Assembly: GCA_913052485.1 (NCBI GenBank)
Contig: CAJXDN010000003.1
Location: forward strand, 4,602-68,601
Source of the DNA: an uncultured Flammeovirgaceae bacterium
GTDB lineage: Bacteria; Bacteroidota; Bacteroidia; Cytophagales; MED-G16
Length of the DNA stretch: 64,000 nt
Direction of reading: 5' to 3'
This document shows positions 7,658 through 63,071 of this stretch, piece by piece (the first letter of the stretch is position 1; every line of letters starts with the position of its first letter). Under the pieces are notes generated by a model. It saw only the letters and a list, made by a program, of their open reading frames with translations. It was not told the origin of the DNA and made no database searches. The translations under genes and the position numbers were made by a program.

Positions 7658-7658
7658 A

Positions 7659-10479: not shown

Positions 10480-10551
10480 ATTTTTTTTATTTAATTATTA
10501 TCTATTTTAAATTCATTTAACATAAAACGAATCTGTTTATTATTTAAACTT

Positions 10552-11565: not shown

Positions 11566-11569
11566 TATT

Positions 11570-14642: not shown

Positions 14643-14643
14643 A

Positions 14644-15315: not shown

Positions 15316-15392
15316 GGTATATTTATATAATAATATTTAAATTAAGACGTATTTATATATAAATATAGATCATTTATTAAAAAAATAAATTT

Positions 15393-16780: not shown

Positions 16781-16788
16781 TATTTTAA

Positions 16789-20960: not shown

Positions 20961-20972
20961 GTAATAATTTAT

Positions 20973-21362: not shown

Positions 21363-23803
21363 TTTTTAAATTTTGTTCTTACTTCTAAAAATAATATTGA
21401 AATAGATAAAAGTAATAGAATAATATTAGATGCAATTACTACCTTATTTCCAATGCTATATGGTGATGGGTTGAATCTCATTTCAATTATATTTTCTCCT
21501 TTTTTCAACTCAAGTCCTCTTAGAACATAGTTTACTCTCATCAAATCAATTTTTTCACCATTAACCTTTACTTCCCACCCGTAGGGATAATAAATTTCTG
21601 AAAACACAATAAATGATTTAGAGGGGTTTGAGACATTATAAATAATTTTATTTGGGTTATGTTCAATAACATTTATGCTTCCTTCTTGCGAGTATAATTC
21701 ATCTATATTATTAATTTTAAATTTGTTTACATCAATTATAGCCTCATTTTTTGAATTAAATTTAAATAAAGTGTTAAGTTCATCGATTGCAGAGGTTACA
21801 GGAATTAAATTTTTAATGAACCAGGCCTTCCCATTTGAGTAGTCGTTTTTAATTACATTATTTCTTTCATCTCCAAACTTAAAATACCCTACATTAAGCA
21901 TATTTAGTACATTTAGATCATTAAAGTTTCTCTCATTATTTCTAAGTTTATCAACTAGCATACTCCTCTCCTCATTTATATTCCTTTCTATTATTTCTTG
22001 GTATCTTCTTATTTTAGCTCCATGATACCCACCAATTGAGGAATGATAATAAGAAGTTTTAGCTTCATTAAATGAATTCTGGAGATTAAAAACTCTTTTC
22101 CTATCTGTATTATTTTCAAGAATAAACTGATCAGATTCGCTTATAACTAACTCACCATCTTTCTTTGATATAAATGTACAGTCGTTATATAGCTCACAGC
22201 TTTTATCGGTTCTTAAAATTTTATTATTAATTCTAAAATGATCTATGATAATTAGTATAGTTAGGGATATAGTAATTATTTGAACACTAATTTTTTTATA
22301 GTAAAAAGTGATTAATAAAATAAAAAATATAAAAGTCATGACAGAACCATATATGAGATCAGATATATATAATTGTTTTCTGTCTTGTATCAAAGCATCA
22401 AGAAACCAGCTAGGAAAATTTTGAAAATTTGAGTCAACAGATCCAGTAAATCCTAGTATAAATGTTAAAAGAAAAAGTACTGTATATATGGATACTGTTA
22501 TGTAAAATGCCTTGAAAAAACTTTTTTTATGTTCATCTATATTTTGGAGTAATTTCTCTATAGTAAGAGAGGATAAAAGAATAACAGAAAAAATTGATAT
22601 CAATATTATGAAGGTGACAGATCTAAATTTATTATATCCTGGCAGATAATCAAAAATAATATTGTTAACGAACCCTAAATTACTTCCCATACTTAATATG
22701 AGACTAAATAAAAGAAGATATAACACCCAGTTTTTTTCAGATTTCTTTAAAATTATTATACCAAGAATTAGAAGGAAAAGACACAAAGATCCAGCAAAAT
22801 AGGGTGCAGTTAAGGGTTGGGTTCCCCAGTATGTTGGAACATTTCTCAACTGATTGTTAATTTGTGCAGAATTTACGTTATTCTTTCTTAAAGCTTTGCC
22901 AAGGTATGAATCTCTCTCAAGAGTTTGTCTACTTGATCCCCCAAGTATATGAGGTATAAAAAGTGTCAAAGGCTCAAAAAAACTATTACTGTACTGAAAC
23001 GCATAATCTTTATCTAGACCTGATTCATTTATTTTAATTTCTGATTTCCCTCTGATAGATACATCAGAATACTCTAAAATTGCCCAAATCTCTCCAAAAA
23101 ATGTGCCAACAGCTATAAGGGCTGCTACTGATAAAATTCCTATCCTTTTAAAAAAATACTGTAATTTATTTTTGGAGTAAAATAAAATCAATTGGCCGCC
23201 ACCATAGAAAATTAATATTAATAAAGTATAATATGTAATCTGTAAGTGGTTTAACCTCAGTTGTAAAGCCAACGCAATGGCTGTTATAATAAAACCTAAA
23301 TTCCTATTCCTGTGGATACACAAATGAACTCCACCAAGGATTAACGGCATTAAAGCTGCTGTACCTATCCTAGCATTATGACCTGCTGATATACCGACAA
23401 CCATGTATGAAGATAATGTAAAAGCTACCGATCCAAATAACGCAATCTCAGGCCTAACTCTAAAACATATAAGCATTATGTAAAAAGATATAAATGAAAT
23501 AATAAAATTACTTACTGGGTGAGGGAAGAATAAACTGTAAATTTTATGTATGTATAAAATAATTTGATTACTCCATTTGACGTCGATTAAATATGCCGGC
23601 ATCCCCGAGAACATTGAATTTGACCACAGTGCCTCCTCATTACTATTTTTTCTAAATTCAATTGTTTCATTTGCCGAATATTTCCACTGCTCTATATCAT
23701 GTTGCTTAATATTTTTATTTTCAAAAAAAATTGGATGAAATAGGGTTATTGTTAGAAAAATAAATACTATCAGTGAAAGAATATGTTTGTATAAAATACT
23801 CAT
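21359..23803 (-). CDS. YfhO family polytopic membrane protein (GT-C-like)
   Basis: 814 aa, many TM segments plus a C-terminal extracytoplasmic domain and a final TM. The N-terminus is typical of flavobacterial YfhO homologs. Confidence 0.65.
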   Translation of the reverse strand: MSILYKHILSLIVFIFLTITLFHPIFFENKNIKQHDIEQWKYSANETIEFRKNSNEEALWSNSMFSGMPAYLIDVKWSNQIILYIHKIYSLFFPHPVSNFIISFISFYIMLICFRVRPEIALFGSVAFTLSSYMVVGISAGHNARIGTAALMPLILGGVHLCIHRNRNLGFIITAIALALQLRLNHLQITYYTLLILIFYGGGQLILFYSKNKLQYFFKRIGILSVAALIAVGTFFGEIWAILEYSDVSIRGKSEIKINESGLDKDYAFQYSNSFFEPLTLFIPHILGGSSRQTLERDSYLGKALRKNNVNSAQINNQLRNVPTYWGTQPLTAPYFAGSLCLFLLILGIIILKKSEKNWVLYLLLFSLILSMGSNLGFVNNIIFDYLPGYNKFRSVTFIILISIFSVILLSSLTIEKLLQNIDEHKKSFFKAFYITVSIYTVLFLLTFILGFTGSVDSNFQNFPSWFLDALIQDRKQLYISDLIYGSVMTFIFFILLITFYYKKISVQIITISLTILIIIDHFRINNKILRTDKSCELYNDCTFISKKDGELVISESDQFILENNTDRKRVFNLQNSFNEAKTSYYHSSIGGYHGAKIRRYQEIIERNINEERSMLVDKLRNNERNFNDLNVLNMLNVGYFKFGDERNNVIKNDYSNGKAWFIKNLIPVTSAIDELNTLFKFNSKNEAIIDVNKFKINNIDELYSQEGSINVIEHNPNKIIYNVSNPSKSFIVFSEIYYPYGWEVKVNGEKIDLMRVNYVLRGLELKKGENIIEMRFNPSPYSIGNKVVIASNIILLLLSISILFLEVRTKFKK

Positions 23804-49200: not shown

Positions 49201-50414
49201 GAAACAAGTTAAATACAATACCGGAGGCCATTCAGGCAATTAAAAATGGAGAAATTATAATTGTTGTTGATGATGAGAATAGAGAGAATGAGGGCGACTT
49301 TGTTTGTGCGTCTTCTGCCATAGACTCTGAAAAAATTAATTTTATGACAAAAGAGGGAAGAGGTTTGATATGTTGCTCTCTCGAATCTAGTAGATGTGAG
49401 GATTTAGATTTAGAACTAATGGTTGGAAAGAATACTGATATTTATGGCACATCTTTTACGGTATCTGTTGATTTGAAAGGAAATGGTGTTACCACTGGTA
49501 TATCAGCATCAGACCGAGCAAAAACAATTAAGGCATTAGTTGATGATAAAATTGACGCATCTAATTTTTCAAAACCGGGTCATATATTTCCGTTGAGAGC
49601 TATTGATGGTGGAGTGCTAAGAAGGGCAGGCCACACAGAAGCCTCGGTTGACCTTCCCAAGCTTGCCGGTCTATTTCCATCTGGTGTAATTTGTGAAATA
49701 TTAAATGATGATGGTACCATGGCAAGACTAGATAATTTATTTAAGGTTGCTGATAAGCATGGATTAGTTATTATTTCAATAAAAGATTTAATTAAATATA
49801 AACTTGACATAGAGTCATTAATAGAAGAGAAGGAGACGGTTGATTTACCTACTGAATATGGAAATTTTAAGCTTATTTCCTTTGAGCAGAAAGACACTAA
49901 AGATATTCATCTTGCAATAAAAAAGGGAGAATGGAAAGACGATGACGAGGTATTAGTTAGGGTACACTCTTCATGTGTTACCGGGGATATTTTAGGATCA
50001 CTTAGATGTGATTGTGGAACCCAACTCCAGAGGGCCTTAAGAATGATAGATGAAAAAGGTCAAGGTTTGGTGTTGTACATGAATCAGGAGGGTAGAGGAA
50101 TAGGTTTAATAAATAAGCTAAAGGCATATGTATTACAAGAGCAAGGCTATGATACTGTCGAGGCAAATCATAAACTTGGTTTTAAAATGGATCATCGAGA
50201 TTATGGAGTTGGTGCACAAATTCTCAAAAGTTTAGGAATTCAAAAGATAAACCTATTAAGTAATAACCCAAAGAAGAGAGTTGGTCTAATTGGATATGGA
50301 CTCAAAATAATAAAAAATACTAAAATAGAAATTGAACCAAATTCGTTTAATAGAAAGTATTTGGAAACTAAGAGAGATAAAATGGGTCATGATATATTAA
50401 AAGAAAAGAAATAA
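49197..50414 (+). CDS. ribBA: bifunctional 3,4-dihydroxy-2-butanone-4-phosphate synthase / GTP cyclohydrolase II
   Basis: DDENRENEGD, RAGHTEASVDL, and CxxGDxxGSLRCDCGxQ with NQEGRGIGL. Confidence 0.95.
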   Translation: MRNKLNTIPEAIQAIKNGEIIIVVDDENRENEGDFVCASSAIDSEKINFMTKEGRGLICCSLESSRCEDLDLELMVGKNTDIYGTSFTVSVDLKGNGVTTGISASDRAKTIKALVDDKIDASNFSKPGHIFPLRAIDGGVLRRAGHTEASVDLPKLAGLFPSGVICEILNDDGTMARLDNLFKVADKHGLVIISIKDLIKYKLDIESLIEEKETVDLPTEYGNFKLISFEQKDTKDIHLAIKKGEWKDDDEVLVRVHSSCVTGDILGSLRCDCGTQLQRALRMIDEKGQGLVLYMNQEGRGIGLINKLKAYVLQEQGYDTVEANHKLGFKMDHRDYGVGAQILKSLGIQKINLLSNNPKKRVGLIGYGLKIIKNTKIEIEPNSFNRKYLETKRDKMGHDILKEKK

Positions 50415-51040
50415 TGAGACTTATATTTTTTATTTCATTTTTAACATATTATCCTCTCATTGCTCAAAAATTTCCCAGCGATATATGGCACAAGGGAGAG
50501 TTGGTCACAAATGATGGCGACACGATAAAAGGTAATTTAAAGTATGATTTTGAGTCACAGTCAATTCAGCTTGATGACGGTAAAACACTAAAAGCCTTTA
50601 ACGTTAACAATCTTTTTTTCTTTGAGATATACGACGAGACTATTAGAGATTATAGACAGTTTTACTCATTAATGTATGAAGTTGGATTCGATTATCGAGT
50701 CCCAGTTTTATTTGAGATGATGATAGAAGGTAAGCTCAGTCTTTTACTTAGAGAAAGAATTGTGGCTGAATCCACACAATCTTATTTGCCATCCTACTAT
50801 GCATACGGGATAATGCCGGCTTTCACAAATAATTACGGATACATTAATAAGGTTAAATACGATTACTTCTTTTTGACTGATAATGGTAAAATCCATGAAT
50901 TCAAGGGTAAGAAAAAAGAAATTTATAATTTGATGGATGATAAATTTAGTGAGATGAAAGAATACATTTCAAAGAATAGAATTAATTTAAAGAAAATGAG
51001 TGATCTTGCCAGGATAGTTAATTATTATAATAGAATTTAA
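50414..51040 (+). CDS. hypothetical secreted protein
   Basis: 208-aa ORF with a signal peptide, start overlapping the ribBA stop (TAATG), and immediately abutting surE. Confidence 0.5.
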   Translation: MRLIFFISFLTYYPLIAQKFPSDIWHKGELVTNDGDTIKGNLKYDFESQSIQLDDGKTLKAFNVNNLFFFEIYDETIRDYRQFYSLMYEVGFDYRVPVLFEMMIEGKLSLLLRERIVAESTQSYLPSYYAYGIMPAFTNNYGYINKVKYDYFFLTDNGKIHEFKGKKKEIYNLMDDKFSEMKEYISKNRINLKKMSDLARIVNYYNRI

Positions 51041-51811
51041 ATGAAAAAACCCCTCATATTAGTAACTAACGATGACGGTATTGACTCCAAGGGGATAAGA
51101 CTACTTGTTTCCATTATGTCAGAATTTGGAGAAGTTGTTGTTGTAGCACCAGACAGCCCTCAGTCAGGTATGGGCCATGCAATTACAGTTGGAGATAAAT
51201 TACGTTTAGTGAAGTCGGATTTATTTGGTGATATTGAATCCTACAAGTGTAGTGGAACACCTGCAGACTGTGTTAAAATTGCAAAACATCATATACTTAA
51301 GAATAGAACTATAGATTTAATTACTAGTGGAATAAATCATGGGAGTAACTCATCAATCAGTGTTCTTTATTCAGGTACTATGTCTGCAGCAATTGAGGGT
51401 GCTATAGAAAATACACCTTCAATAGGTTTTTCTTTATGTGATTTTGATCCTAATGCTTACCTCGATCACTCTAGAGAATTTATCAAAGAAATTGTTCAAA
51501 ATGCCTTTGATAATGGAATGCCAGAATCAATTGCTTTAAATGTCAATATACCTGCTATTTCAGGTGAAAAAATCAAGGGAATTAAAGTCTGCAGGCAGGC
51601 AAATGCTATATGGGAAGAAACATTTGATAAACGTCATGATCCCTACGGGAGAGAGTATTATTGGATGGTTGGTAATTTTGTTAATCATGATAAGGGAAAA
51701 GATAATGATGAGTGGGCAATAAAAAATAATTATGTTTCAGTTGTACCTTGCAAATTCAATTTAAGCTCGAACAAAGGGATTAATTATTTACAAAATAAAT
51801 GGAAAATTTAA
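51041..51811 (+). CDS. surE: 5'/3'-nucleotidase SurE
   Basis: ILVTNDDGIDSKGI, GINHGSN and YSGTMSAA. Confidence 0.95.
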   Translation: MKKPLILVTNDDGIDSKGIRLLVSIMSEFGEVVVVAPDSPQSGMGHAITVGDKLRLVKSDLFGDIESYKCSGTPADCVKIAKHHILKNRTIDLITSGINHGSNSSISVLYSGTMSAAIEGAIENTPSIGFSLCDFDPNAYLDHSREFIKEIVQNAFDNGMPESIALNVNIPAISGEKIKGIKVCRQANAIWEETFDKRHDPYGREYYWMVGNFVNHDKGKDNDEWAIKNNYVSVVPCKFNLSSNKGINYLQNKWKI

Positions 51812-53523
51812 GGGTCTACATCTATTGTAATTAAATTATTATTGAACTCTTTTCTCTTATTAATTTTCTTAATTTCCTCAAAGATCATTTTTTTATTTTT
51901 TGATAAGTTCTTAACTCTATCAAGTTTCAGATAAATTTTATATATATAACTATTGTTTCTATTGACAAGACCAACGTCAGTTGAAACACAAAAATTTAAT
52001 TTTTTACTTAATTCCTCGTATAAATTTTTTCCTTTATTTTCAAAGTTTTCTTTATTATTTGAGTGCATCTCTAATGAGATTAATCTTTTATAGGGTGAAT
52101 AGCCAAAAATCTTTCTTTCCTCCATCTCTTTAGAAATTATATGATAATAATCTTTTCTAATATTATCTCTTAATTTTTCAGAATTTGAATTCATTAATTG
52201 TAGTATTAATTTCTTATCCTTATCATAATTCACCTTCTTTATTACTTTAAAGATTAATTGAAAATATATTTCATTTGACTTGTAATTTGCTACTGACGAA
52301 ATCTTATCTGGATCAATTAGAATAAGAAGATTATATTTATATGATTCTAGACTATCAATCACTGAGTAATTTCCTATTATCAAGTCATAATGGTTTATTT
52401 GATCATAAAATTCATCAAGCTGATTTCTTGAAATATTATTGTGTTTAGATAAAGAAAATATTTTCAGTTTTTTGTTAAGATCATCCAAATTATTTTTAAT
52501 TCTATCTACATCATTTGAGTAGGGTGTAAAAATTATTGTTTTATTCTTTTCATTAAAATTTTTAATAATTTTTTCTAATATTTCATTAGAAATAATTCCA
52601 TCTAATTCTTTTTTAATTTTTTTTTCAAGCTTATTGTAGATTGTAATTTTATTTAAATCTGTACTCAATTTTAGTTTTTTAGATTTATCATAAAATTTAA
52701 ATCTTTTCATTTTAGTATTATACATAGATTCAATCGATGGAGAATCTGATATTAGATCTATATCGCATTTATGTAATTTTGATAAAAAAATAGCGCAATC
52801 TCTAGAATTATATCTCAAAACTCTGTCTGTCTCTTTGTATAAGAAGTTATGTTCATACATTACAAAAATTTTGTTAAGGTTTTGAAATGGTAAGAAAACG
52901 GCTGCCTTACTTCCTATTATAACTATTTCTTCATTCATTAGAATTTTTTCCCATATAGCTAACTTTTCTTTAGTAGATGTTTTGGCATCATATATATGAA
53001 TATTCTTAATTTTTTTTGATAAGGTCCTGTAACTGTATTGAGTTTGAAAGACATTTGGACTCAAAATTAAATTCTGATATTGAAGAGGCTTTATATCTTT
53101 AAAAATATTTTTAATTATATCTCTGGAATGATCTACTACTAAATTTATATTAGGGTTAAATTTCTTATTTACTGAAGGAATTTCAATAAATTCTTTGATT
53201 TTTAAATTCAAAATGTTCTTTGAAAAGATTGAATTAAATAATTTCGGGAGGCTAACTAAATAATATTCTGAAGCCCATAATAATAATTTAATTTGTTTGT
53301 AAGATAGTATTCCGTTGTAGCTTTCTATAGAAATTATTTTTTTATATGGAAATTTCTGTTTGGGCCTGTATTTTTTTGAAATCACAATACCCTTTATGAC
53401 TTCATTATTATTTCCAAATGGTATATTAACTACTGAACCTATTCTTGTTTTTATATCTGTTTTATAGGTAAATAGCCTATCTAATGGTATTAATACAATT
53501 ACGTCTACGCAGGAACCTTTCAT
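51808..53523 (-). CDS. priA: PriA-like primosomal protein N' homolog lacking ATPase/helicase motifs and the Cys-rich zinc region
   Basis: The N-terminal 3'-DNA-binding-domain pattern (VDVIVLIPLDRLFTYK...VNIPFGNNNEVIKGIVI), LLLWASEYY, IVIIGSKAAVFLPFQNLNKIFV and the C-terminal IDVDP all align with PriA. There is no GxGKT and no CxxC, DEEH is replaced by YEHN, and motif VI is lost. Length is 571 aa. Confidence 0.7.
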   Translation of the reverse strand: MKGSCVDVIVLIPLDRLFTYKTDIKTRIGSVVNIPFGNNNEVIKGIVISKKYRPKQKFPYKKIISIESYNGILSYKQIKLLLWASEYYLVSLPKLFNSIFSKNILNLKIKEFIEIPSVNKKFNPNINLVVDHSRDIIKNIFKDIKPLQYQNLILSPNVFQTQYSYRTLSKKIKNIHIYDAKTSTKEKLAIWEKILMNEEIVIIGSKAAVFLPFQNLNKIFVMYEHNFLYKETDRVLRYNSRDCAIFLSKLHKCDIDLISDSPSIESMYNTKMKRFKFYDKSKKLKLSTDLNKITIYNKLEKKIKKELDGIISNEILEKIIKNFNEKNKTIIFTPYSNDVDRIKNNLDDLNKKLKIFSLSKHNNISRNQLDEFYDQINHYDLIIGNYSVIDSLESYKYNLLILIDPDKISSVANYKSNEIYFQLIFKVIKKVNYDKDKKLILQLMNSNSEKLRDNIRKDYYHIISKEMEERKIFGYSPYKRLISLEMHSNNKENFENKGKNLYEELSKKLNFCVSTDVGLVNRNNSYIYKIYLKLDRVKNLSKNKKMIFEEIKKINKRKEFNNNLITIDVDP

Positions 53524-53637
53524 TATTTTTTGAAAGATTCAATTTAGTAAAGATTGAAAAGATTGAAAAAAGAAATTAATTATTTAGGATTTTTTTGTAT
53601 CCTTCTTACTATTTTAAGGTCGGCTCTCTTCACTTTT

Positions 53638-54195
53638 TTATTTGGAAGTGATATCCTGGTCCTTAGATTCCCCTGAATTTTTTACGTTCTTATTATCATC
53701 TTTGACAACATCTTCCTCCTTCTTTATTTTTTTACTTTTCTTTTTACTTGAAACATCCCCAGTCACATTTATTTTAATAGGGTGAGTAATATCTTTATGA
53801 ATTTTTAAATCTACATCATACTCGCCAACTGCATTAACTTTTGTTAGAATTGATATATTTTTCTTATTTATTTCAATTCCCTTTTCTGATAATAGTTTAG
53901 CAATTTGTGCAGTCGTTATTGATCCAAAAACTTTATCGTCTGAACCAGATTTGAGTTTAAAATCCAAAACTAGGTTACCTATTTTTTTTGAAAGTTTTTG
54001 AGCTTCTTTTAAGATTTCTTCTTGTTTTTTAACTGTCTGTTTTAAATTTTCCTCCAATACCTTAGAATTTGATTTATTTGCTAAAACACCTAGTCCCTGA
54101 GGTATAATATAATTCCTTCCGTAGCCATTTTTAACATTGACAACCTCATCTTTAAACCCTAAACCGGGTATATCTTTAATTAAAATAATCTCCAT
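53638..54195 (-). CDS. rplI: 50S ribosomal protein L9 with a Lys/Asp-rich C-terminal extension
   Basis: MEIILIKDIPGLGFKDEVVNVKNGYGRNYIIPQG. The extension is about 37 extra residues (SSKKKSKKIKKEEDVVKDDNKNVKNSGESKDQDITSK). Confidence 0.9.
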   Translation of the reverse strand: MEIILIKDIPGLGFKDEVVNVKNGYGRNYIIPQGLGVLANKSNSKVLEENLKQTVKKQEEILKEAQKLSKKIGNLVLDFKLKSGSDDKVFGSITTAQIAKLLSEKGIEINKKNISILTKVNAVGEYDVDLKIHKDITHPIKINVTGDVSSKKKSKKIKKEEDVVKDDNKNVKNSGESKDQDITSK

Positions 54196-54196
54196 A

Positions 54197-54463
54197 TTAA
54201 TTTGTATCAGCAGTATATGGTAGTAGTGCTAAATGTCTTGCTCTCTTTATAGCCTGAGTTACTTTTTTCTGGTATTTTGCACTGGTACCAGTAATTCTTC
54301 TAGGTAGAATCTTTCCTTGATCATTAATAAACTGTTTTAGAAATGAAGGATCTTTGTAATCAATGTATTTTATACCACTTTTTTTAAATCTACAAAATTT
54401 CTTTTGTTTACTGGTTCTGTCAATAGATTCATTTTGTAAGGCTGAATTAAATCGGTTTCTCAT
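54197..54463 (-). CDS. rpsR: 30S ribosomal protein S18
   Basis: [18 protein letters not shown]...[31 protein letters not shown]. Confidence 0.95.
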
Positions 54464-54816
54464 TTTTTTACTTTCTTCTTGTTAAACTCTCCATTAGCTC
54501 TTCTTAGATTATATTCTAAAGCATCTTTACATAATGACACAGTAATGTATCTTAGAATAGATCTATCTCTTTTCAACTCAGTTTCGAGGTTTCTTACGAA
54601 ATCAATTTTTTCAGTTTCGTACTGAAATAAATGAAAAAATCCAGAGTTTTTATTACTGATGGTGTATGATAATTCTTTAAATCCAAGAGACTCATCACAT
54701 ACAATCTTGATCTTGTTAGAGTCAAGTATTTTTTTATATTTTTTTACAGTATCCTCTACCTGTTTTTCAGATAGAACGGGATTTATAATGAATACTGTTT
54801 CATAATTTTTATTCAT
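54460..54816 (-). CDS. rpsF: 30S ribosomal protein S6
   Basis: [27 protein letters not shown]. Conserved rpsF-rpsR-rplI order. Confidence 0.9.
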
Positions 54817-54868: not shown

Positions 54869-55747
54869 TTATTTTATTAAAAATTCTCCACTGCCAATTT
54901 CGTACTCATCAGTGAACAATTTAACCAAGTATGTCCCTTTATTAAATTCATCATTTATTAAGTATTCGACACTTAATTTTTTTTCAGATTTATCAATAAG
55001 TACTTCCTCTTTAATTGTAAAAAACATTTCTCTTTTTTCGAAAGTGAATGATCCAGAACCATTTGATATATCATAAATAACTTCACCACTTGGTTTTTCT
55101 AATATGATATATAAATCTTTAACTTCAATTTTTGCTAAATCATTTTCACCAAGCGTAAAATTAATATTAAGTTTTTCCAATGACCTATTCCTAAATTGGT
55201 TTCTTTTTTGAGATCCATTCCTAAAAATTCCAACAATCTCAATTTCTAATAGTTCAAGTCTGGAAGCAACTTCAATTTGTTCCTCTAATTTTTTATTAGA
55301 TTTATTAATATTTGATATTGTGCTATTAAGATTATTTATCTCAATTTTTTGTTCTTTATTTTCCTCAAATAATTGTTCATTGACCTCTCTCAATCTTTCA
55401 ATTTCCTCATCCTGAGCTAATAATAATTCCCTATATCCCTCTACTTTTCCTTGTAGCCTGTTGATTTGTGCATATGCTCTTGACCTGAATTCTCTCTTTT
55501 CTAATTCCAAATTTTCTTTCAAAATAAGTAGGGAGTCAATATCTCCTCCTAACTGGGATATTGTCAGAATTTTATCTCCAAGTACATTAGATATCGAATC
55601 AAGTTCCAGGTAGACATTGTCAAGTTCTTTTTCTTGTTGGATCCTTATCTTTTCAGATATATTATTTTTATATATTATGAACGCTAATCCACAAATAATT
55701 AATATTATTACTAACGTTAAAATTCTAATAATTTTATTTTCTTTCAT
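54869..55747 (-). CDS. hypothetical N-terminally anchored coiled-coil protein with C-terminal beta domain
   Basis: TM segment (ILTLVIILIICGLAFII), about 130 aa of heptad-like E/K/L/Q-rich sequence, then a beta-rich C-terminus. Confidence 0.5.
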   Translation of the reverse strand: MKENKIIRILTLVIILIICGLAFIIYKNNISEKIRIQQEKELDNVYLELDSISNVLGDKILTISQLGGDIDSLLILKENLELEKREFRSRAYAQINRLQGKVEGYRELLLAQDEEIERLREVNEQLFEENKEQKIEINNLNSTISNINKSNKKLEEQIEVASRLELLEIEIVGIFRNGSQKRNQFRNRSLEKLNINFTLGENDLAKIEVKDLYIILEKPSGEVIYDISNGSGSFTFEKREMFFTIKEEVLIDKSEKKLSVEYLINDEFNKGTYLVKLFTDEYEIGSGEFLIK

Positions 55748-57553: not shown

Positions 57554-58066
57554 TTAGAAAGATATAAAGATAGAGATACCAACTAGATTATCAGAGTTTA
57601 TATTTTCTATGTTTGGTCTAATTTGAATCGATAAATCATTACTTGTATCAAATTCATTTAGGTGAGCAAATACATGTGCATCAACAATATTCAATAAATA
57701 ATAAACGCCAGTAAAAATTATGAGCATATCTCTATTTCTTCTCCAAAATTCCATATTTCTTTCTAATGAATTTTTACTGAAATTAGGGAAAGGGTTTATG
57801 GTGGATGTATTATCATCAGTCTCAAATGTCAGAGCTTCTCGGAATTCATGATACATGTCATTGTTAAATTTAATGTAATGTCCAATTACAGCGTAACCAC
57901 CATAAATAATTGGTAACTTCCAATATTGTTTGTTATAAACTTGACCTAACCCAGGAAGTATTGTAGATAATGTTGTAGCCTTTTTAGGATTATAAACTCT
58001 TAGTTTTTTTTCTTGGGAAAAGGAGAGATTAAAAGTTATAATAATTAGAAAAATTACTTTCTTCAT
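57554..58066 (-). CDS. DUF5683 domain-containing protein
   Basis: LSTILPGLGQVYNKQYWKLPIIYGG motif, positioned downstream of parB as is common in Flavobacteriales. Confidence 0.6.
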   Translation of the reverse strand: MKKVIFLIIITFNLSFSQEKKLRVYNPKKATTLSTILPGLGQVYNKQYWKLPIIYGGYAVIGHYIKFNNDMYHEFREALTFETDDNTSTINPFPNFSKNSLERNMEFWRRNRDMLIIFTGVYYLLNIVDAHVFAHLNEFDTSNDLSIQIRPNIENINSDNLVGISIFISF

Positions 58067-58921
58067 TTATATAATATCAAGTAATTCAAGTATTCTATTC
58101 AGATCATTTGTTGACTTATAAGGAACAATAATTTTACCAGAGTTCTCGTCACCTTGTGTTGAAATTTTTGTTCCAAAAAAAGAAGATAACTTAGATTTAA
58201 TTTTGGTTAATTCATTATTGCTTTTTTTCTTATCTGATACTATTACTTTCTCATTCTTTAAACTTCTAACAAGTTCCTCAGTTTTTCTTACAGATAACTT
58301 ACCTTTAATTATTAACTGATAAATTTTTAACTGTATATCTGTTTTTTCAATTGTTATAAGTGACCGTGCATGTCCCATTTGAATTTTATTTTCTTTAATC
58401 CCATTCTGAATTGATGGAGGGAGTTTTAATAATCGAACATAATTATTTATAGTAGTCCTGTCTTTACCTAATCTTTTTCCAAGCTCTTCCTGCTTAATAT
58501 TTAATTCGTCAACTAATTTTTTATAGGATATAGCAATTTCAATTGAATTTAAGTTTTCTCTCTGAATATTTTCAATTAAGGCTATTTCAAGTAGGCTCTC
58601 ATCATTATTTCTTCTTATGAAGGCCGGTATTGTTTTAATATCACAAATTTTTGATGCCTTATACCTCCTCTCTCCTGATATGAGTTGATATTTATTTTTT
58701 GATAACTTTTTAACAGTGATGGGCTGTATGATCCCATGTTTTTTTATTGATAATGATAGCTCTTTTAATTTTTCTTCATCAAAGAATTCACGAGGTTGAT
58801 CCTTGTTAATTATTATATTATTAATATCAATTTCTTCAAAAATATTATTGCCACTATTTGACTCAGGCACATTTAATAATGATCCTAAACCCCTCCCAAG
58901 TGTATTTCTTTTATTTACCAT
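58067..58921 (-). CDS. parB: chromosome partitioning protein ParB/Spo0J
   Basis: LGRGLGSLL, QPREFFDEEKLKELSLSIKKHGIIQPI, GERRYKAS and an HTH segment. Confidence 0.9.
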   Translation of the reverse strand: MVNKRNTLGRGLGSLLNVPESNSGNNIFEEIDINNIIINKDQPREFFDEEKLKELSLSIKKHGIIQPITVKKLSKNKYQLISGERRYKASKICDIKTIPAFIRRNNDESLLEIALIENIQRENLNSIEIAISYKKLVDELNIKQEELGKRLGKDRTTINNYVRLLKLPPSIQNGIKENKIQMGHARSLITIEKTDIQLKIYQLIIKGKLSVRKTEELVRSLKNEKVIVSDKKKSNNELTKIKSKLSSFFGTKISTQGDENSGKIIVPYKSTNDLNRILELLDII

Positions 58922-59697
58922 GTAACTTTAACAGAATTATTTTTGTCGATAACTTCTTTAGCTAAATTTAGATAGCTTATTGATCCTTTACAACTTGCAT
59001 CATATGATATTGCTGGTACCCCGAATGATGGTGCCTCGCTAAGTTTTACGTTTCTTGGTATAATTGTATTAAAAACCAAAGCCTTAAAGTGGGTTTGAAC
59101 CTCCTCTACAACTTGGTTACTTAACCTGAGTCTGACATCGTACATGCTCATTAGAATCCCTTCAATATTTAAGTTTTTATTGAGGTCTCTCTGAATTAGT
59201 TTTATAGTTTCTAGTAATTTTCCAAGTCCTTCCAATGCAAAATATTCACATTGTACCGGTATTATAACTGAGTCTGAAGCCACTAATGCATTTACAGTAA
59301 CAATTCCAAGAGATGGAGAGCAGTCAATGATTATAAAATCATAATTATCTTTTATTTTATCAATAAAGTGTTTCATTCTTAGGTCTCTCTCATCGATATC
59401 AACCATCTCTACCTCAGCTCCAACTAGATCAATGTCAGAAGGTAAAATATGAAGATAGTCTACATCAGTTTTAATTATTGAGTTTATATTAATTTCTTGA
59501 GTAATCATACACTCATAGACTGTTTTATTTATTGACTTTTGATCAATTCCTAGACCTGATGTAGTATTTGCTTGGGGATCTGCATCGATCAATAATGTCT
59601 TGTATTCCAATGCTGCCAGGCTAGCTGCCAGGTTAATTGATGTTGTTGTTTTACCAACGCCACCCTTTTGATTTGCAATTGAAATTACTTTACCCAT
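58915..59697 (-). CDS. parA: chromosome partitioning ATPase ParA/Soj
   Basis: Deviant Walker A ANQKGGVGKTTT, with IIDCSPSLG. Confidence 0.95.
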   Translation of the reverse strand: MGKVISIANQKGGVGKTTTSINLAASLAALEYKTLLIDADPQANTTSGLGIDQKSINKTVYECMITQEININSIIKTDVDYLHILPSDIDLVGAEVEMVDIDERDLRMKHFIDKIKDNYDFIIIDCSPSLGIVTVNALVASDSVIIPVQCEYFALEGLGKLLETIKLIQRDLNKNLNIEGILMSMYDVRLRLSNQVVEEVQTHFKALVFNTIIPRNVKLSEAPSFGVPAISYDASCKGSISYLNLAKEVIDKNNSVKVTW

Positions 59698-59719
59698 GTA
59701 TCTACGTAGCTATATTAAT

Positions 59720-61468
59720 TTATTTATTTTTTTTCTTCTTTTCTTGTCTAACCTTCATAGCTTCTTCCAGTCTTAACTGAAAACTTGATTTATTACTATT
59801 TAAATTTCTTTTTCTATTAAAATCAATCTCTTTTTTGATTTTCTCTTCATCTACAAACATCTTAAATATATTAATTTGAGCATAAGATGCAACGTTTGAC
59901 AGAAAATAATAATATGTCAAACCAGCTGAAAAATTGTTAAAAATAAATAAAAACATGAATGGGAGGACATATTGTATTGTTTTCATTGGTCCCTCCATTG
60001 TTTGCATCTGGGAGTTTGCTTTATTTATAAATATTGTAGATACTGTCATAAGAATTGTAAATAAGCTTATATGATCTCCATATAATGGCAGGTAAAATGG
60101 CAGATCTAGAATAGAATCATAATTTGACAGATCTGATGCCCACAGAAATGACTTCCCTCTTAGTTCGATAGCATTTGGTAAAAAGTAAAACACTGATACT
60201 AAAATTGGAAGCTGAAACAATATTGGCAGACATCCACCAAGAGGACTTACCCCAGTTTTAGTGTAGAGCTCCATAATCTCAGCTTGAGATTTTTGCATAT
60301 CTCCATCATGTTTTTTTCTTATTTCCTGTATCTCAGGATTTAAAACTTTCATTTTAGCCATCGAGAGATGTGACTTAAAAGTTAATGGAGTAACTACTAA
60401 TCTAATTAGAACTACCATAAATAAAATAATCAGTCCATAATTTGATGTAATTTTTTCTAAAAAATTGAAGATTGGAACAATTACATATCTATTAAAACCA
60501 CCAACACCAATCCAGCCCAAATAAATATTATTATGAAATTCATACTCAATTTCTTTTAGGACAGAATACTTATTAGGTCCAAAATAAAATTTTAAAAAAA
60601 TTGAGTTGTTGATAATTGGTATGTCAGAAGATACTGAGAAATTTTTATTGATCTCATCACTCTCGACATATTTTGATGAAACTGTTGAGTTAATAATATT
60701 ATTATCAGAAATTACAGCTGAACTAAAGAATTGTTGTTTGAATGATACCCATTTTAATGGATCTTCAATTTTAATTTCTTCATCATCTTTAGATGTAGCG
60801 GAGGTATAATCAAAACTCTCATCTAAGCTATAGAAATTTATTCTTGTTTGATTTTTCTCGTTGACATTATTTTCTTCCTGGTGTGTAAGATTATTTTCCC
60901 ACTGAAATTTTATATTTTTTAGCCCATTAAATTCATCATTTAATAGAACTCGTGAGTTAATAATATAACTATCTCCAATTTCGTAGATAACGGTGATTTT
61001 CTTATTATCAATCCCTAATGCCGAGAATTGAATGGTTTTCTTTTCAGTATCTGACTTAATATTTTTATCAAAGATTATTTCATTAAAATTAATATTTTCA
61101 TCGTCATTTAGGATGAAATTAATATCGCCTCTATTACTGTCGTATAAATGAACCTCTTTATTATTTTTAGTTGAATATTTTTTCAATTTAACATCAACTA
61201 TCTTAGCACCCTTATTAGAGAATGTAACTCGGATTAAATCATTATCAACTTCAAATCTCTCTTCAATCTCAGAGGATATAAATTTTTCATTTTTTTTAAA
61301 TTTATTTTCATCATTTTTTGGATTAATTTGAACTTCTTCTAATACCTCTGTATTTGGGGTTTGATTTATATCTTCACTTTCTGGTATCTGACCTGGAGGA
61401 AAGAATGTATAATAAGTTAAAATTAAGAGCATTATGAGGGTGAACCCAATAAATCTATTATTATCCAT
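59720..61468 (-). CDS. yidC: membrane protein insertase YidC
   Basis: Large periplasmic P1 domain followed by the conserved core (PLTFKSHLSMAKMKVLNPEIQEIRKK...GCLPILFQLPILVSVF). Confidence 0.9.
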   Translation of the reverse strand: MDNNRFIGFTLIMLLILTYYTFFPPGQIPESEDINQTPNTEVLEEVQINPKNDENKFKKNEKFISSEIEERFEVDNDLIRVTFSNKGAKIVDVKLKKYSTKNNKEVHLYDSNRGDINFILNDDENINFNEIIFDKNIKSDTEKKTIQFSALGIDNKKITVIYEIGDSYIINSRVLLNDEFNGLKNIKFQWENNLTHQEENNVNEKNQTRINFYSLDESFDYTSATSKDDEEIKIEDPLKWVSFKQQFFSSAVISDNNIINSTVSSKYVESDEINKNFSVSSDIPIINNSIFLKFYFGPNKYSVLKEIEYEFHNNIYLGWIGVGGFNRYVIVPIFNFLEKITSNYGLIILFMVVLIRLVVTPLTFKSHLSMAKMKVLNPEIQEIRKKHDGDMQKSQAEIMELYTKTGVSPLGGCLPILFQLPILVSVFYFLPNAIELRGKSFLWASDLSNYDSILDLPFYLPLYGDHISLFTILMTVSTIFINKANSQMQTMEGPMKTIQYVLPFMFLFIFNNFSAGLTYYYFLSNVASYAQINIFKMFVDEEKIKKEIDFNRKRNLNSNKSSFQLRLEEAMKVRQEKKKKNK

Positions 61469-63071
61469 TTTTAATTGATTTTATTTTATTTACAAAGCTA
61501 ACAAATAGCGGATGTGGTTTAAGCACTCTGCTTCTATATTCTGGGTGATATTGTGTCCCAATAAACCATGGATGATCATCTAATTCAATCGTCTCAACAA
61601 GATTAAGTTTAGGATTTATTCCAGGAGTTTTCATTCCATGATCATTGAATTCGCTTTTATAACTGTTATTAAACTCATACCTGTGTCTGTGTCTTTCGTG
61701 AATTTCAGTTGATTTATAGGAATTATAAATTTGAGTACCTTTTTCTAGAAAACACTCATATGAACCAAGCCTCATAGTTCCACCCTTATTTTTTATTTTT
61801 TTCTGTTCTTGCATAAGATCTATAACTGGGTGATTTGTTTCTCGATCAAATTCAGTTGAATTAGCAATTTCATAGCCTAAGACATTCCTCGAAAACTCTA
61901 TACATGCACATTGCATTCCGAGGCATATACCAAAGAAGGGAATTTTATTTTTTCTAACATATTCAATTGCTAAAATTTTACCTTCAATCCCTCTCACTCC
62001 AAACCCTGGAGCAACTATTATTCCGTCTATATTTTTTAATTTTTTCTTTAAGTTTTGGGTCTTAAGTTCTTCGGATAGAATCCATTGAATGTCAACCTTT
62101 GAATTCTGATTTGCTCCGGCATGTATTAAAGATTCTGAAATTGATTTGTAAGAGTCTTGTAAGGAGACATACTTACCTATAATAGCAATTTTTAACTTAT
62201 TTTCAGACATATGTAAATTACTCAAGAATCTTTTCCATCTACTTAACCTCAATGGTTTTTTCTTTTTAATATTTAAATTTTCAAGTACAATTTCATGCAA
62301 TCTTTCCTCCCTCATCAGTACTGGGACATCATAAATTGACTCTGCATCAATAGATTCAATAACTGAATTTTTAGACACATTACAGAATAATGCCAATTTG
62401 TTTTTTATTTCTTTACCTAATTTATGCTCACTTCTACAAACTAAAATATCAGGTTGTATACCGGCCTCTAATAATTTTTTAACTGAGTGTTGTGTAGGTT
62501 TTGTTTTCAATTCACCTGATGTCGATAGATAAGGTATTAATGTCAGATGAATATTTAGAAAATCACTTTTTTTAAGATCTAATTTTGCCTGCCTCACTGC
62601 CTCAAAAAATGGAAGAGATTCAATATCACCAATACAGCCACCAATTTCAGTGATAATAATCTCAAAAGAATTATTTTTTCCAATTTTATAAAAACTATTT
62701 TTAATCTCGTCTGTTATATGTGGTATTACCTGAACTGTTTTACCTAGAAATTCCCCTTTTCTTTCCTTAGAAATGACATTATTATATATTCTCCCTGTAG
62801 TTACGTTATTATCTTGAGAAGTAGATATACCTAAAAATCTCTCATAGTGGCCAAGATCTAAGTCAGTCTCTGCACCGTCTTCAGTAACGTAGCACTCACC
62901 GTGCTCATAAGGACTCATAGTTCCTGGATCGATATTTAAGTATGGATCAAATTTCTGGATTGTTACTTTGTAGCCAACTGCCTTTAATAGGAGTCCTAAT
63001 GACGCTGAAATGATTCCTTTACCAAGAGAAGAGGTAACTCCACCCGTTACAAATATGTACTTTTTTTTCAT
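61461..63071 (-). CDS. pyrG: CTP synthase
   Basis: KYIFVTGGVTSSLGKGI, and a GATase domain with GICLGMQ and HRHRYEFN. Confidence 0.97.
   Translation of the reverse strand: MKKKYIFVTGGVTSSLGKGIISASLGLLLKAVGYKVTIQKFDPYLNIDPGTMSPYEHGECYVTEDGAETDLDLGHYERFLGISTSQDNNVTTGRIYNNVISKERKGEFLGKTVQVIPHITDEIKNSFYKIGKNNSFEIIITEIGGCIGDIESLPFFEAVRQAKLDLKKSDFLNIHLTLIPYLSTSGELKTKPTQHSVKKLLEAGIQPDILVCRSEHKLGKEIKNKLALFCNVSKNSVIESIDAESIYDVPVLMREERLHEIVLENLNIKKKKPLRLSRWKRFLSNLHMSENKLKIAIIGKYVSLQDSYKSISESLIHAGANQNSKVDIQWILSEELKTQNLKKKLKNIDGIIVAPGFGVRGIEGKILAIEYVRKNKIPFFGICLGMQCACIEFSRNVLGYEIANSTEFDRETNHPVIDLMQEQKKIKNKGGTMRLGSYECFLEKGTQIYNSYKSTEIHERHRHRYEFNNSYKSEFNDHGMKTPGINPKLNLVETIELDDHPWFIGTQYHPEYRSRVLKPHPLFVSFVNKIKSIKNG

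Follow-up and report, generated by a model that had tools for sequence, protein, structure and literature searches.

A PriA homolog of marine Cytophagales reduced to 571 residues: motor motifs, zinc module and winged helix lost, the remainder under purifying selection

The window analysed here, a stretch of 64,000 nucleotides from an uncultured Flammeovirgaceae bacterium that matches a Tara Oceans scaffold, carries an ATG-initiated open reading frame for a shortened homolog of the replication restart protein PriA (Table 1). The gene, called the reduced priA below, is preceded on its own strand by three ribosomal protein genes, with a spacer of 114 nt on the rplI side. No terminator-like hairpin was found in a scan of the minus strand upstream of it, so that co-transcription with rpsF-rpsR-rplI is possible. 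At its other end it converges on surE: the two stop codons share four nucleotides, as had been claimed in a previous reading made from the sequence alone (the sequence-only reading), and the identical 4-nt overlap is found in 15 related loci. The order rpsF-rpsR-rplI-priA/surE-hyp-ribBA-dnaG is conserved, its upstream part being kept at loci L001-L010, L012-L014, L015 and L016. The sequence-only reading took the host for a flavobacterium; this has to be corrected, since all genomes with the short form are marine MAGs or SAGs labelled Marinoscillum sp., Flammeovirgaceae or Cytophagales (class Cytophagia). PriB, DnaT and DnaC are not encoded in the 64-kb window; to our knowledge, these partners are not expected in Bacteroidota.

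Table 1. Features of the reduced priA locus (positions in the window)
Feature	Position	Strand	Basis
TTAA common to the convergent stop codons of the reduced priA (-) and surE (+)	51808..51811	.	Coordinates; sequence TGGAAAATTTAAGGGTC
Reduced priA gene, 571-aa PriA homolog	51808..53523	-	ORF, Pfam, E. coli PriA match, AF2/Foldseek, dN/dS
PriA C-terminal domain, residues 446-571, ends IDVDP	51811..52188	-	PF18074
RecA-like helicase lobe 2, residues 286-445	52189..52668	-	Cys-rich region excised; alignment of motifs V and VI
RecA-like helicase lobe 1, residues 126-285	52669..53148	-	HMMER alignment (E. coli PriA 237-378); model secondary structure
Linker at the deletion of the winged helix and pre-lobe-1 segment, residues 101-125	53149..53223	-	Alignment gap, low conservation
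3'-DNA-binding domain, residues 1-100	53224..53523	-	PF17764; pocket F18-T19-Y20, P35-F36-G37, K61 kept
rpsF-rpsR-rplI, upstream, same strand as the reduced priA	53524..54816	-	ORFs; Pfam families on orthologous contig L016

Sequence and structure place the product in the PriA family. Pfam recognizes its 3'-DNA-binding domain (3'BD; PriA_3primeBD, residues 7-98, E 2.7e-15, 56 bits with a cut-off of 22.7) and its C-terminal domain (CTD; PriA_C, residues 477-571, E 3.4e-6, 28.2 bits with a cut-off of 26.9); Helicase_C registers below threshold only. A phmmer search of the PDB returns the E. coli and Klebsiella PriAs (E 1e-19 to 3e-16), a profile of the clade finds them at E 7e-32, and the 3'BD also matches the structure of the isolated E. 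coli domain (2d7e). The blocks LLLWASEYY, LILSPN, IVIIGSKAAVFLPF, LISDSPSIES and IDVDP, singled out by the sequence-only reading, align as it proposed. An AF2 model (pLDDT 80, pTM 0.80), built on an alignment of 33 sequences, has PriA for each of its nine best Foldseek matches in the PDB (E 2.9e-29 to 2.8e-18), the top one being 8fak_H (E 2.9e-29, TM 0.68); the next family is Mfd, at 6e-12. The protein thus has the 3'BD, the CTD ending in DVDP and, in the PriA arrangement, the two RecA-like SF2 lobes of the family. It scores 97-167 bits with the NCBIfam PriA equivalog models, whose cut-offs are 230-1249 (the best are NF004066, 167 bits against 813, and TIGR00595, 150 against 230; one further model gives 22 bits), and is therefore a PriA homolog and not a canonical member. 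Its net charge, +37, also makes it the most basic of 15 neighbouring proteins by a wide margin.

What has been retained? Four folded modules of PriA are preserved, in the order 3'BD-lobe 1-lobe 2-CTD that they have in the canonical proteins (E. coli, 732 aa, 8FAK and 6DCR; Klebsiella, 4NL4; Bacteroidota, 810-840 aa). To judge from the alignments, so are the elements with which the E. coli protein contacts DNA: the 3'-end pocket, motif Ia, the aromatic-rich loop that serves as fork-junction wedge, and the CTD (PMC5175346, PMC10175261). The TPS motif, ERKxFxYPP and the C-terminal DVDP are likewise conserved with canonical PriA. In the 3'BD, T19, Y20, G37 and K61 are invariant within the clade; FTY, PFG and K61 also hold up against the canonical PriAs, K61 being invariant there and T19 and Y20 nearly so. 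Lobe 1 contains a remnant of motif Ia, LILSPN (152-157), of which the L and the P are invariant between reduced and canonical PriAs, as are G204, P212, E224 and P262-S263. It also keeps the aromatic-rich loop (K230...R237-Y238-N-S-R241-D242): K230, R237, R241 and D242 are invariant in 15 aligned genomic sequences, while the residues at the DEEH box vary. K230 (E. coli K328) and D242 (E. coli D339) are shared with the canonical proteins without exception; R237 (E. coli R334) is invariant within the clade and, with few exceptions, in the canonical sequences too, and at Y238 (E. coli Y335) either Tyr or Phe occurs. The CTD residues that are invariant in the comparison with canonical PriAs are E469-R470..F473..P477, K533, K544 and the terminal D568-x-D570-P571.

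What has been lost is the motor, together with two accessory modules. 1) A Walker A motif (GxxGSGKT in canonical PriA; general pattern [AG]xxxxGK[ST]) is absent from the entire protein; its single GK dipeptide, at residue 498 (FENKGKNLY), lies in the CTD. Where the P-loop should be, between strand 126-130 and helix 136-144 of the model, there is a five-residue loop devoid of glycine (D131-H-S-R-D135), so that the site is destroyed and not merely shifted. 2) There is no DExH in the protein. DEEH aligns to M222-Y-E-H225, a position that reads MYEH, IYEH, IYEN, LSEH, LAEH, TNEQ, ANEQ or INEH in the shallow branches of the clade alignment; the deepest branches of the 572-residue type have LDEN or VDEN at Walker B. 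3) Motif VI, QVAGRAGR (the arginine finger QxxGRxGR), aligns to KVIKKVNY (426-433); motif V reads IIGNYSV. By these alignments every element for binding and hydrolysing ATP (the P-loop, the Asp-Glu pair of Walker B, the arginines of motif VI) is destroyed. 4) The protein has no CxxC pair (its Cys residues are at 5, 243, 253 and 512 only) and no match to PF18319. The Cys-rich region (CRR), which in canonical PriA has four CxxC pairs and binds two zinc ions, is cleanly deleted after T333-P-Y-S336: the gap spans ~57-60 alignment columns relative to Bacteroidota PriA (~60-70 aa), and in the profile alignment 10 residues of the reduced form stand against 70 of E. coli PriA (positions 336-346 correspond to 386-456 of the PDB chain). 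5) The whole winged-helix (WH) domain and the linker that precedes lobe 1 are missing, ~190 alignment columns in comparison with Bacteroidota PriAs of 815-840 aa; just 25 poorly conserved residues connect the 3'BD to the strand that opens lobe 1. Both accessory modules, the CRR and the WH domain, are excised. The first four of these losses had been read correctly from the sequence, down to MYEH, the four isolated Cys and the GK in ENKGKNL; the loss of the WH domain was missing from that inventory. Absence of the WH domain is not by itself diagnostic, since some otherwise canonical short PriAs of ~650 aa (P0050, P0064) likewise do without it.

In a motif census, Walker A, DEEH, the CRR and motif VI are all missing from 34 of 34 proteins of the short clade (571-577 aa) and from all 22 proteins of a sister clade with 671-682 aa, described below; 157 of the 165 other PriAs fetched at that stage have all four, so that the losses are no accident of a single sequence. 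The catalytic residues of motifs I and II are thus unconserved lineage-wide, which is one mark of a PriA pseudohelicase in the sense of Lopper et al. 2015. In E. coli PriA the CRR forms one wall of the single-stranded DNA pore and a wedge essential for unwinding, and the WH domain clamps the parental duplex (PMC10175261). The CRR is also the dock for PriB. Because both matter in E. coli, the grip of the reduced PriA on a fork must differ from the E. coli model.

Might the motor nevertheless be active, binding ATP through unconventional residues or borrowing a nucleotide site in trans from a partner? Both RecA-like lobes are present and constrained; the aromatic-rich loop is conserved, an element by which E. 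coli PriA links ATP hydrolysis to the binding of DNA (PMC5175346); most members have a Ser and next to it a basic residue in what is left of the P-loop; and a second, weaker nucleotide site has been reported for E. coli PriA (review PMC5778457). We nonetheless consider an active motor exceedingly improbable: no member has a Gly-rich loop or GK[ST], the acidic pair of Walker B has given way to variable residues (MY, IY, LS, TN) and the arginines of motif VI to K-V-N-Y or others, the wedge that unwinding requires is gone (PMC10175261), and the substitution K230R alone kills the E. coli enzyme (PMC5778457).

The reduced form comprises at least 34 protein clusters (at 90% identity), all of 566-577 aa; clustering at 50% identity leaves four representatives among 1.84 billion proteins. 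At 14 genome loci the gene order is the same and the length of the product constant, with divergence down to 39% identity. Purifying selection acts on the gene, ~2-5x more weakly than on most neighbours and about as strongly as on rplI: over 12 pairs its dN/dS lies at 0.10-0.22, compared with 0.00-0.14 in most of the neighbouring genes and 0.04-0.34 in rplI. The three pairs that are informative have a nonsynonymous fraction of 0.35-0.42, where 0.81 is expected under neutrality (p 1e-14 to 1e-34). The constraint is greatest in the 3'BD (dN/dS 0.05-0.18) and extends to lobe 1 (0.08-0.24), lobe 2 (0.10-0.49) and the CTD (0.10-0.17), no folded domain exceeding 0.26 except in one pair; the linker alone is variably and weakly constrained (0.14-1.56). 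The linker also has the lowest mean column conservation (0.41), and the model's pLDDT falls to 53 for residues 111-120. Between related loci, identity is 39-62% for the reduced PriA, 79-91% for SurE and 67-79% for DnaG. Fast evolution relative to the neighbours, low GC, a high content of FYMINK residues and low NCBIfam PriA scores are signs of possible functional drift.

Could the frame, then, be open by mere accident, or its inactivation be recent, with a product devoid of function? All of the catalytic motifs are lost, selection is relaxed in comparison with most neighbours, the linker evolves close to neutrality in certain pairs, and no other gene of the neighbourhood has so low a GC (23%) or so mutation-biased an amino acid composition (FYMINK 50%, the maximum). 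One would not, however, expect a pseudogene to remain intact in 14 of 14 genomes and 34 clusters at 39% identity, to reject neutrality with p down to 6e-34, to preserve ~100 invariant columns across 33 sequences and a confident AF2 model, or to have a sister clade whose length is equally stable (671-682 aa) at identities down to 48%; we give this explanation hardly any credence. The sequence-only reading had left two interpretations standing, a non-helicase scaffold for replication restart and a decaying gene caught before loss. Synteny at 14 loci, constant length and the dN/dS values rule out the latter, and the scaffold is favoured; the gene's intact frame and probable function were correctly foreseen. 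That reading had also asked whether orthologs share the losses and whether dN/dS indicates purifying selection: the census and the pairwise values answer both in the affirmative.

The sister clade (P0042 and relatives; locus L019, GCA_035092685.1) provides an intermediate state. Its priA is syntenic (priA-surE-hyp-ribBA-dnaG), and the protein shares with the reduced form a CRR deletion with identical boundaries and the loss of DEEH (DNEE or EDEF) and of motif VI. It differs in being ~105 aa longer, in keeping about half of the WH region, and in retaining a segment of P-loop length whose sequence is scrambled (GSSFLERKK, ESNYERRIN). A shared CRR deletion in a protein that still has half of its WH region and a scrambled P-loop, together with the LDEN or VDEN left at Walker B in the deepest 572-type branches, suggests that reduction was stepwise: ATPase activity and the CRR would have been lost in the common ancestor of both reduced clades, and the 572-aa branch would then have dropped what remained of the WH domain, along with the P-loop segment.

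PriA is regarded as a restart helicase that is nearly universal and conserved in its motifs; the one natural exception described so far, the pseudohelicase of Deinococcus-Thermus, is of the substitution type. The PriA of D. radiodurans has no ATPase or helicase activity, yet binds single-stranded DNA, forks and its own DnaB (PMC4504706). The two systems are alike in that Walker A and B are degenerate lineage-wide (PMC4504706; Lopper, Boone & Morrow 2015) and in that the host would be left to restart its forks with no PriA motor. They differ in the kind of change: in Deinococcus, Lys to Arg in GKT and a degenerate Walker B, with no domain deletions reported (PMC4504706); here, a glycine-less P-loop of five residues, no motif VI, and the entire CRR and WH domain excised from a protein of 571 aa. 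They differ also in phylum and ecology, the present hosts being Bacteroidota (Cytophagales) of the small-genome marine plankton. The reduced PriA is best read as a more extreme counterpart of the Deinococcus protein and would be the most reduced natural PriA pseudohelicase found in this analysis. Neither the Deinococcus-Thermus precedent (PMC4504706) nor the syntenic 678-aa clade figured in the sequence-only reading. Two engineered variants of E. coli PriA provide a further comparison. The ATPase-dead priA300 (K230R) is near wild type, PriA-PriB restart proceeding without ATPase or helicase (review PMC5778457), and the WH-deletion protein (PDB 6DCR) is the second-best structural match to our model. 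The reduced PriA combines the types of change of both; unlike it, the two variants keep the CRR and the other motifs and work with PriB, DnaT and DnaC.

The reading that we favour, with a probability of roughly 0.6, is that this is the functional PriA ortholog in a family-level clade of marine Cytophagales with small, AT-rich genomes, reduced to an ATP-independent protein of fork recognition and recruitment, an "adaptor". Homology would predict that it binds DNA, contacts SSB and DnaB and takes part in restart. Such a protein might engage an abandoned fork with its 3'BD and CTD on the leading arm and 3' end and its dead helicase core on the single-stranded lagging-strand template; surfaces of lobe 1, the 3'BD and the CTD would contact SSB and/or DnaB (or its loader), and the replicative helicase would be reloaded. 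Without unwinding of the lagging strand, restart would be limited to forks that are already single-stranded on the lagging arm.

Is it the only PriA of these bacteria? The search for another copy covered the 64-kb window and ~20 kb around each related locus, and the window holds no second PriA. A canonical priA might lie elsewhere, in which case the present protein could be a repurposed paralog that binds some other DNA structure, or that regulates restart or acts as a decoy. Its divergence is indeed very high (~25% identity to canonical PriAs, compared with 40-60% among Bacteroidota PriAs of different classes), the canonical priA genes inspected (Marivirga and others) lie outside the rplI/surE context, and the clade has invariant residues of its own that canonical PriA lacks (N39-N40-E41, N157, C253, T333-P334, S387, P405-D406). 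Against this, a single priA is normal in bacteria (review PMC5778457); in genomes this small, AT-rich and tightly packed a redundant copy is unlikely to persist; those AT-rich canonical PriAs ranked nearest by the searches sit closer to a PriA of Flavobacteriia than to that of Cytophagales, with no hint of a canonical copy here; and the graded series of 840, 678 and 572 aa at a single syntenic locus has the look of an ortholog in progressive reduction. We regard the paralog as unlikely. The strongest form of the ortholog reading, that these bacteria have no PriA but the reduced protein and that it is fully competent to restart replication, is a little less probable than its opposite.

If the strong form is true, nature has done a deletion experiment that marks out a minimal PriA: the 3'BD, two catalytically dead RecA lobes and the CTD suffice, and the ATPase, the zinc-binding CRR and the WH domain are dispensable outside the PriB/DnaT system. 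As the sole PriA this would be the smallest that evolution tolerates, and fork recognition and recruitment, not unwinding, would be the indispensable function of PriA. Were it both sole and competent, the surface that recruits DnaB or its loader would have to lie on the retained core (3'BD, RecA lobes and CTD), and its 571 residues would offer a handle on how DnaB is reloaded where, as in many bacteria, PriA has no PriB, DnaT or DnaC to work with.

The clade represents a second, independent and far more radical loss, in abundant small-genome bacteria of the ocean. What is new is that the motor has been disabled and the zinc module and winged helix cut out, with the remainder under purifying selection across a family-level radiation. 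There is a practical corollary: annotation based on equivalogs fails on reduced PriAs, whose scores are far below the cut-offs, and genome surveys may consequently score the lineage as lacking priA. Several other PriA lineages with degenerate ATPase motifs turned up in metagenomic searches. Losing the PriA motor may be a recurring event and not an oddity of Deinococcus.

The 571-aa ORF priA* (its coordinates and those of the other features discussed are tabulated below) is descended from PriA, yet lies outside canonical PriA. The homology proposed in the sequence-only reading is borne out by Pfam, phmmer, a profile of the clade and Foldseek, all of which agree. The Pfam PriA 3'-DNA-binding domain (3'BD; residues 7-98, E 2.7e-15) and C-terminal domain (CTD; residues 477-571, E 3.4e-6) both score over their curated cut-offs; Helicase_C gives a sub-threshold match only. 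Among PDB sequences, E. coli and Klebsiella PriA are matched by phmmer at E 1e-19 to 3e-16, and the clade profile raises this to E 7e-32. The AlphaFold2 model (input: 33 homologs) is confident (pLDDT 80, pTM 0.80), and its best nine Foldseek matches in the PDB are PriA (8fak_H: E 2.9e-29, TM 0.68/0.61), with Mfd the next family in the ranking (6e-12). On the other side of the ledger, the NCBIfam PriA equivalog models score 97-167 bits vs cut-offs of 230-1249, and none of the five defining features of the canonical equivalog that were tested is found in priA*.

Coordinates of the features discussed (positions in the window unless a related genome locus is named)
Feature	Positions	Strand	Source	Remarks
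priA*	51808-53523	-	window	ATG start, 571 aa
priA*/surE stop codons	51808-51811		window	convergent, TTAA in common
208-aa ORF (hyp208)	50414-51040	+	window	between ribBA and surE
rpsF, rpsR, rplI	53638-54816	-	window	directly upstream of priA*
292-aa protein	54869-55747	-	window	just upstream of rpsF
pyrG (CTP synthase), yidC, parA, parB, DUF5683, signal peptidase I	57554-63071	-	window	in this order
Two tandem Plug-domain ORFs with the YfhO-like gene	20592-23803	-	window	122 and 129 aa, directly downstream of the YfhO-like gene
YfhO-like membrane protein	21359-23803	-	window	814 aa
Sulfated-glycan cluster	1450-18891		window	arylsulfotransferase-like, sulfotransferase, FGE-sulfatase maturase, beta-lactamase-fold, sulfatase, GH97
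Sister-clade reduced PriA	184-2220		L019, GCA_035092685.1	clade proteins P0042, P0104-P0123
Divergent short-form member	9986-10363		L015, Cytophagales MAG PW7.metabat2.10	GC 24%

The losses listed in the sequence-only reading hold up on alignment. A Walker A pattern is lacking, and the sole GK dipeptide is at residue 498; the DEEH box aligns to M222-Y-E-H225, with no DExH anywhere in the protein; and QVAGRAGR of motif VI is replaced, aligning to K426-VIKKVNY (both placements by HMMER and by MAFFT, the latter with canonical Bacteroidota PriAs as partners). The four cysteines (residues 5, 243, 253 and 512) are isolated, CxxC is absent, and the Cys-rich zinc region (CRR) is deleted, leaving a clean gap of ~57-60 columns directly after T333-P-Y-S336; at this site the clade-profile alignment sets 70 residues of E. 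coli PriA against 10 in priA*. A search for an overlooked P-loop or DEEH by regular expression, HMMER alignment with E. coli PriA, MAFFT and AlphaFold2 secondary structure yielded none. The overlap of the stop codon with that of surE, also remarked on before, is real and spans 4 nt. One further loss had escaped the earlier description: the whole winged-helix (WH) domain is absent, and between the 3'BD and lobe 1's first strand there are just 25 residues (101-125), which are poorly conserved. In the model a five-residue Gly-free loop, D131-H-S-R-D135, connects strand 126-130 to helix 136-144 at the P-loop position of the RecA fold, so that the nucleotide site is destroyed rather than displaced. 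Thus, priA* has lost the ATP-contacting motifs I, II and VI plus two accessory modules, the CRR and WH. Might some cryptic ATP-driven activity persist? It is hardly credible: the phosphate-binding loop, the acidic pair and the arginine finger are absent in every member.

What is retained is of a different kind. Set against canonical Bacteroidota PriAs, these elements show no or almost no variation: in the 3'BD, F-T19-Y20, P35-F-G37 and K61; L..P of motif Ia (LILSPN); in lobe 1, G204 with the LPF motif and E224 (the third residue of DEEH); the motif IIa loop, K230...R237-Y238-N-x-R241-D242; P262-S263; N417-E..F-Q422; and in the CTD, E469-R470-K-x-F-x-Y-x-P477, K533, K544 and the terminal D-x-D-P. 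In the HMMER alignment K230...Y238 corresponds to K328...R334-Y335 of E. coli PriA, the aromatic-rich loop that crosslinks to the fork junction and holds the essential Y335 (PMC5175346). The cryo-EM structure of E. coli PriA places this loop wedged in the junction; the leading arm with its 3' end is gripped by the 3'BD plus the CTD, the parental duplex by the two lobes' first member, HD1, together with WH, and a pore around the lagging-strand ssDNA is formed by the CRR along with HD2 and the CTD, with the CRR also bearing the wedge for unwinding and the docking site of PriB (PMC10175261). priA* retains the DNA-contacting elements of its 3'BD, both lobes and the CTD. It is strongly basic: its net charge is +37, vs -11 to +16 for 14 neighbouring proteins.

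Is this a decaying gene caught before its loss, as the sequence-only reading allowed? Its distribution speaks to the question. Searching 5.8 billion clustered proteins yields 34 short-form clusters, 94% to 42% identical, whose full-length members are all 571-577 aa; below them, scores jump to canonical PriAs (815-825 aa, ~25% identity). When 1.84 billion representatives are searched exhaustively with a profile, only four full-length short-form clusters emerge at the 50%-identity level (958-503 bits), with canonical PriAs next at <=246 bits and matched in three pieces. Scanning one genome per species turns up 14 short-form loci, down to 39% identity, with full-length ORFs of 566-577 aa (the ORF of one, L011, is cut by the contig end) and the same order, rpsF-rpsR-rplI-priA* and then the convergent surE-hyp208-ribBA-dnaG, wherever the contig reaches. 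The relatives, in other words, share the losses at fixed length.

They also bear the mark of purifying selection. The dN/dS of priA* is 0.10-0.22 (Nei-Gojobori, 12 pairs); most neighbours lie at 0.00-0.14 and rplI at 0.04-0.34. In three informative close pairs, nonsynonymous changes make up a fraction of 0.35-0.42 of the differences vs a neutral expectation of 0.81 (binomial p = 1.8e-14, 5.6e-34 and 5.6e-14; for a fourth, nearly identical pair, p = 0.01). By domain, dN/dS is 0.05-0.18 for the 3'BD, 0.08-0.24 for lobe 1, 0.10-0.26 for lobe 2 (one pair excepted, at 0.49), 0.10-0.17 for the CTD, and 0.14-1.56 for the linker remaining from the WH deletion. The neighbours are under stronger selection (priA* is 39-62% identical, vs 79-91% for SurE and 67-79% for DnaG), and among 15 genes priA* ranks lowest in GC (23.0%) and highest in FYMINK content (50%), with 24.6% GC at codon positions 1+2 vs 29-40% in its neighbours: mutation bias is visible where amino-acid constraint is weak. 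Persistence, constant length, synteny and selection nevertheless contradict decay and exclude a pseudogene caught before loss, a reading to which we give almost no credence.

Every short-form genome is a marine MAG or SAG that carries the label Marinoscillum sp. (Cytophagia/Cytophagales), Flammeovirgaceae bacterium or Cytophagales bacterium, and the GC of the related loci is 23-30% throughout. The assemblies in question are NZVP01, NZWZ01, JAYNOQ01, JAYPVV01, JAYPDR01, CAYXSW01, JBJLAJ01 (LRMED-062, from long reads), CAZGPH01, CAZKLB01, NZYP01, NZKG01 and the SAGs CABYXZ01 and CACPHX01. "Streamlined" and "free-living", as the host had been described, fit; "flavobacterium" does not. An identical priA* protein is encoded by a Tara Oceans scaffold of 101.7 kb and by a contig of 108.8 kb that has an NCBI record.

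A sister clade, reached through the 678-aa protein P0042, comprises proteins of 671-682 aa, down to 48% identity, in the same context (priA-surE-hyp-ribBA-dnaG). Its CRR deletion has boundaries identical to those of the short form; DEEH (DNEE or EDEF) and motif VI are gone, and approximately half of the WH region is kept, along with a scrambled segment of P-loop length (GSSFLERKK, ESNYERRIN). This clade is an evolutionary intermediate. Within the 572-aa clade the Walker B position reads LDEN or VDEN on the deepest branches, MYEH on the branch of the window, and IYEN, LSEH or TNEQ on others. The simplest reading is of three steps: 1) a common ancestor lost both the CRR and the function of the motor; 2) a later deletion removed ~100 more residues on the 572-aa branch; 3) the catalytic positions, now orphaned, have been drifting ever since. 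A more divergent member at L015, 47% identical across the 3'BD, comes after rplI and has the short-form junction past the 3'BD; its contig ends after 126 codons.

The genomic setting merits comment. In E. coli, priB sits in the rpsF-rpsR operon; in many bacteria ssb does, and dnaB follows rplI. Neither ssb nor priB lies between rpsF and rpsR here, and the attachment of a restart gene to the ribosomal cluster makes a curious parallel. A scan found no terminator on the gene's strand, nor a hairpin of that kind between rplI and priA*, which may allow co-transcription of the two; promoter-like matches around priA* are at background level (38 vs 30.7 +/- 5.6 expected). The 208-aa ORF has a hydrophobic N-terminus and matches no Pfam family at E<=0.01; it encodes an uncharacterised protein conserved in the lineage, and every related locus has it in the same place, at 65-98% identity within the short-form clade and 49% at L019. 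The 292-aa protein has an N-terminal membrane helix, a long Glu/Lys/Leu-rich, coiled-coil-like middle and no Pfam match. Neighbourhoods of parAB and yidC are often origin-proximal, and the one here has dnaG and priA* within 5-12 kb; the GC-skew profile of the window has no clear switch. An Rfam scan of the window yielded two tRNAs only. Farther away, the two tandem ORFs each consist solely of a TonB-dependent-receptor Plug domain. Plug domains that stand alone are unusual; these two could be pieces of a receptor that has been disrupted, or a genuine small-protein pair. With the sulfated-glycan cluster, this otherwise small AT-rich genome has kept a capacity to use polysaccharides.

Alternatively, priA* might be a paralog with another role, beside a canonical priA elsewhere in the genome. 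We consider this unlikely. Pfam scans of ~60 ORFs of the 64-kb window found no second PriA and no DnaB, DciA, SSB, PriB, PriC, DnaT or DnaD, and the nearest-ranked AT-rich canonical PriAs look flavobacterial. (Two candidates for a second copy were discarded: the YfhO-like protein, which merely has the length of a Bacteroidota PriA, and a canonical PriA at loci L020/L021 (30% GC), which is 50% identical to Flavobacteriia PriA vs 45% to Marivirga PriA and gives no support.) The rplI/surE context is absent around the canonical priA loci inspected (P0035, P0051, P0041 and Marivirga P0131), so that an argument from positional orthology could not be made.

The reading that we favor, with a probability of roughly 0.6, is that priA* is an ATP-independent fork-binding restart platform. 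There is precedent. E. coli PriA K230R is without ATPase, helicase or translocase activity, yet supports restart in vitro, and priA300 cells are much like wild type (PMC5778457); K230A supports DnaB loading in vitro with PriB, DnaT and DnaC (PMC10175261); and the PriA of D. radiodurans is a natural pseudohelicase that binds ssDNA (Kd 215 nM), forks (109 nM) and DnaB (PMC4504706). priA* would bind abandoned forks through its 3'BD and CTD, on the leading arm with its 3' end, the dead helicase core contacting the junction and lagging-strand ssDNA; fork-bound, it would then serve as a platform bringing in the SSB-bound template and DnaB, or a DnaB loader. In PriA the site that binds SSB is situated between lobe 1, the 3'BD and the CTD (PMC5778457), and all three domains are kept. 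The HMMER alignments of priA* with E. coli PriA end before the region of the CTD around R697. That arginine is reported, in a structure paper of 2014, as the "basic lip" residue for the SSB C-terminus. Without wedge and motor, priA* could serve no fork whose lagging arm is not yet single-stranded. The CRR is known to couple ATPase to unwinding and to dock PriB; with the motor lost in a PriB-less lineage it would be left without a role, which fits the joint loss of the CRR and the motifs.

On sequence criteria priA* would join the Deinococcus-Thermus PriAs as a pseudohelicase. The likeness has limits: there, motifs I and II are changed by substitution, whereas in priA* the P-loop has been wiped out, motif VI is missing and two entire domains have been cut away. 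Literature searches found no published description of such a PriA, and nothing relevant on degenerate PriA in Bacteroidetes or on genomes of streamlined Marinoscillum-like plankton. Eight other metagenomic PriA lineages of 663-830 aa (P0054, P0083, P0301, P0312, P0354, P0355, P0405 and P0408) have a scrambled Walker A (e.g., HAENGSGKS, KGMSIHGRV, SDNFKERV) and no motif VI arginines; DEEH is altered too in some, and the four CxxC pairs of the CRR are kept in every one. They look like independent origins of pseudohelicases outside Deinococcus-Thermus, and because of them loss of the PriA motor seems to be recurrent. The CRR and WH losses are so far confined to the two marine clades, of 572 and 671-682 aa, and in the first of these priA* is a real and selectively maintained gene.
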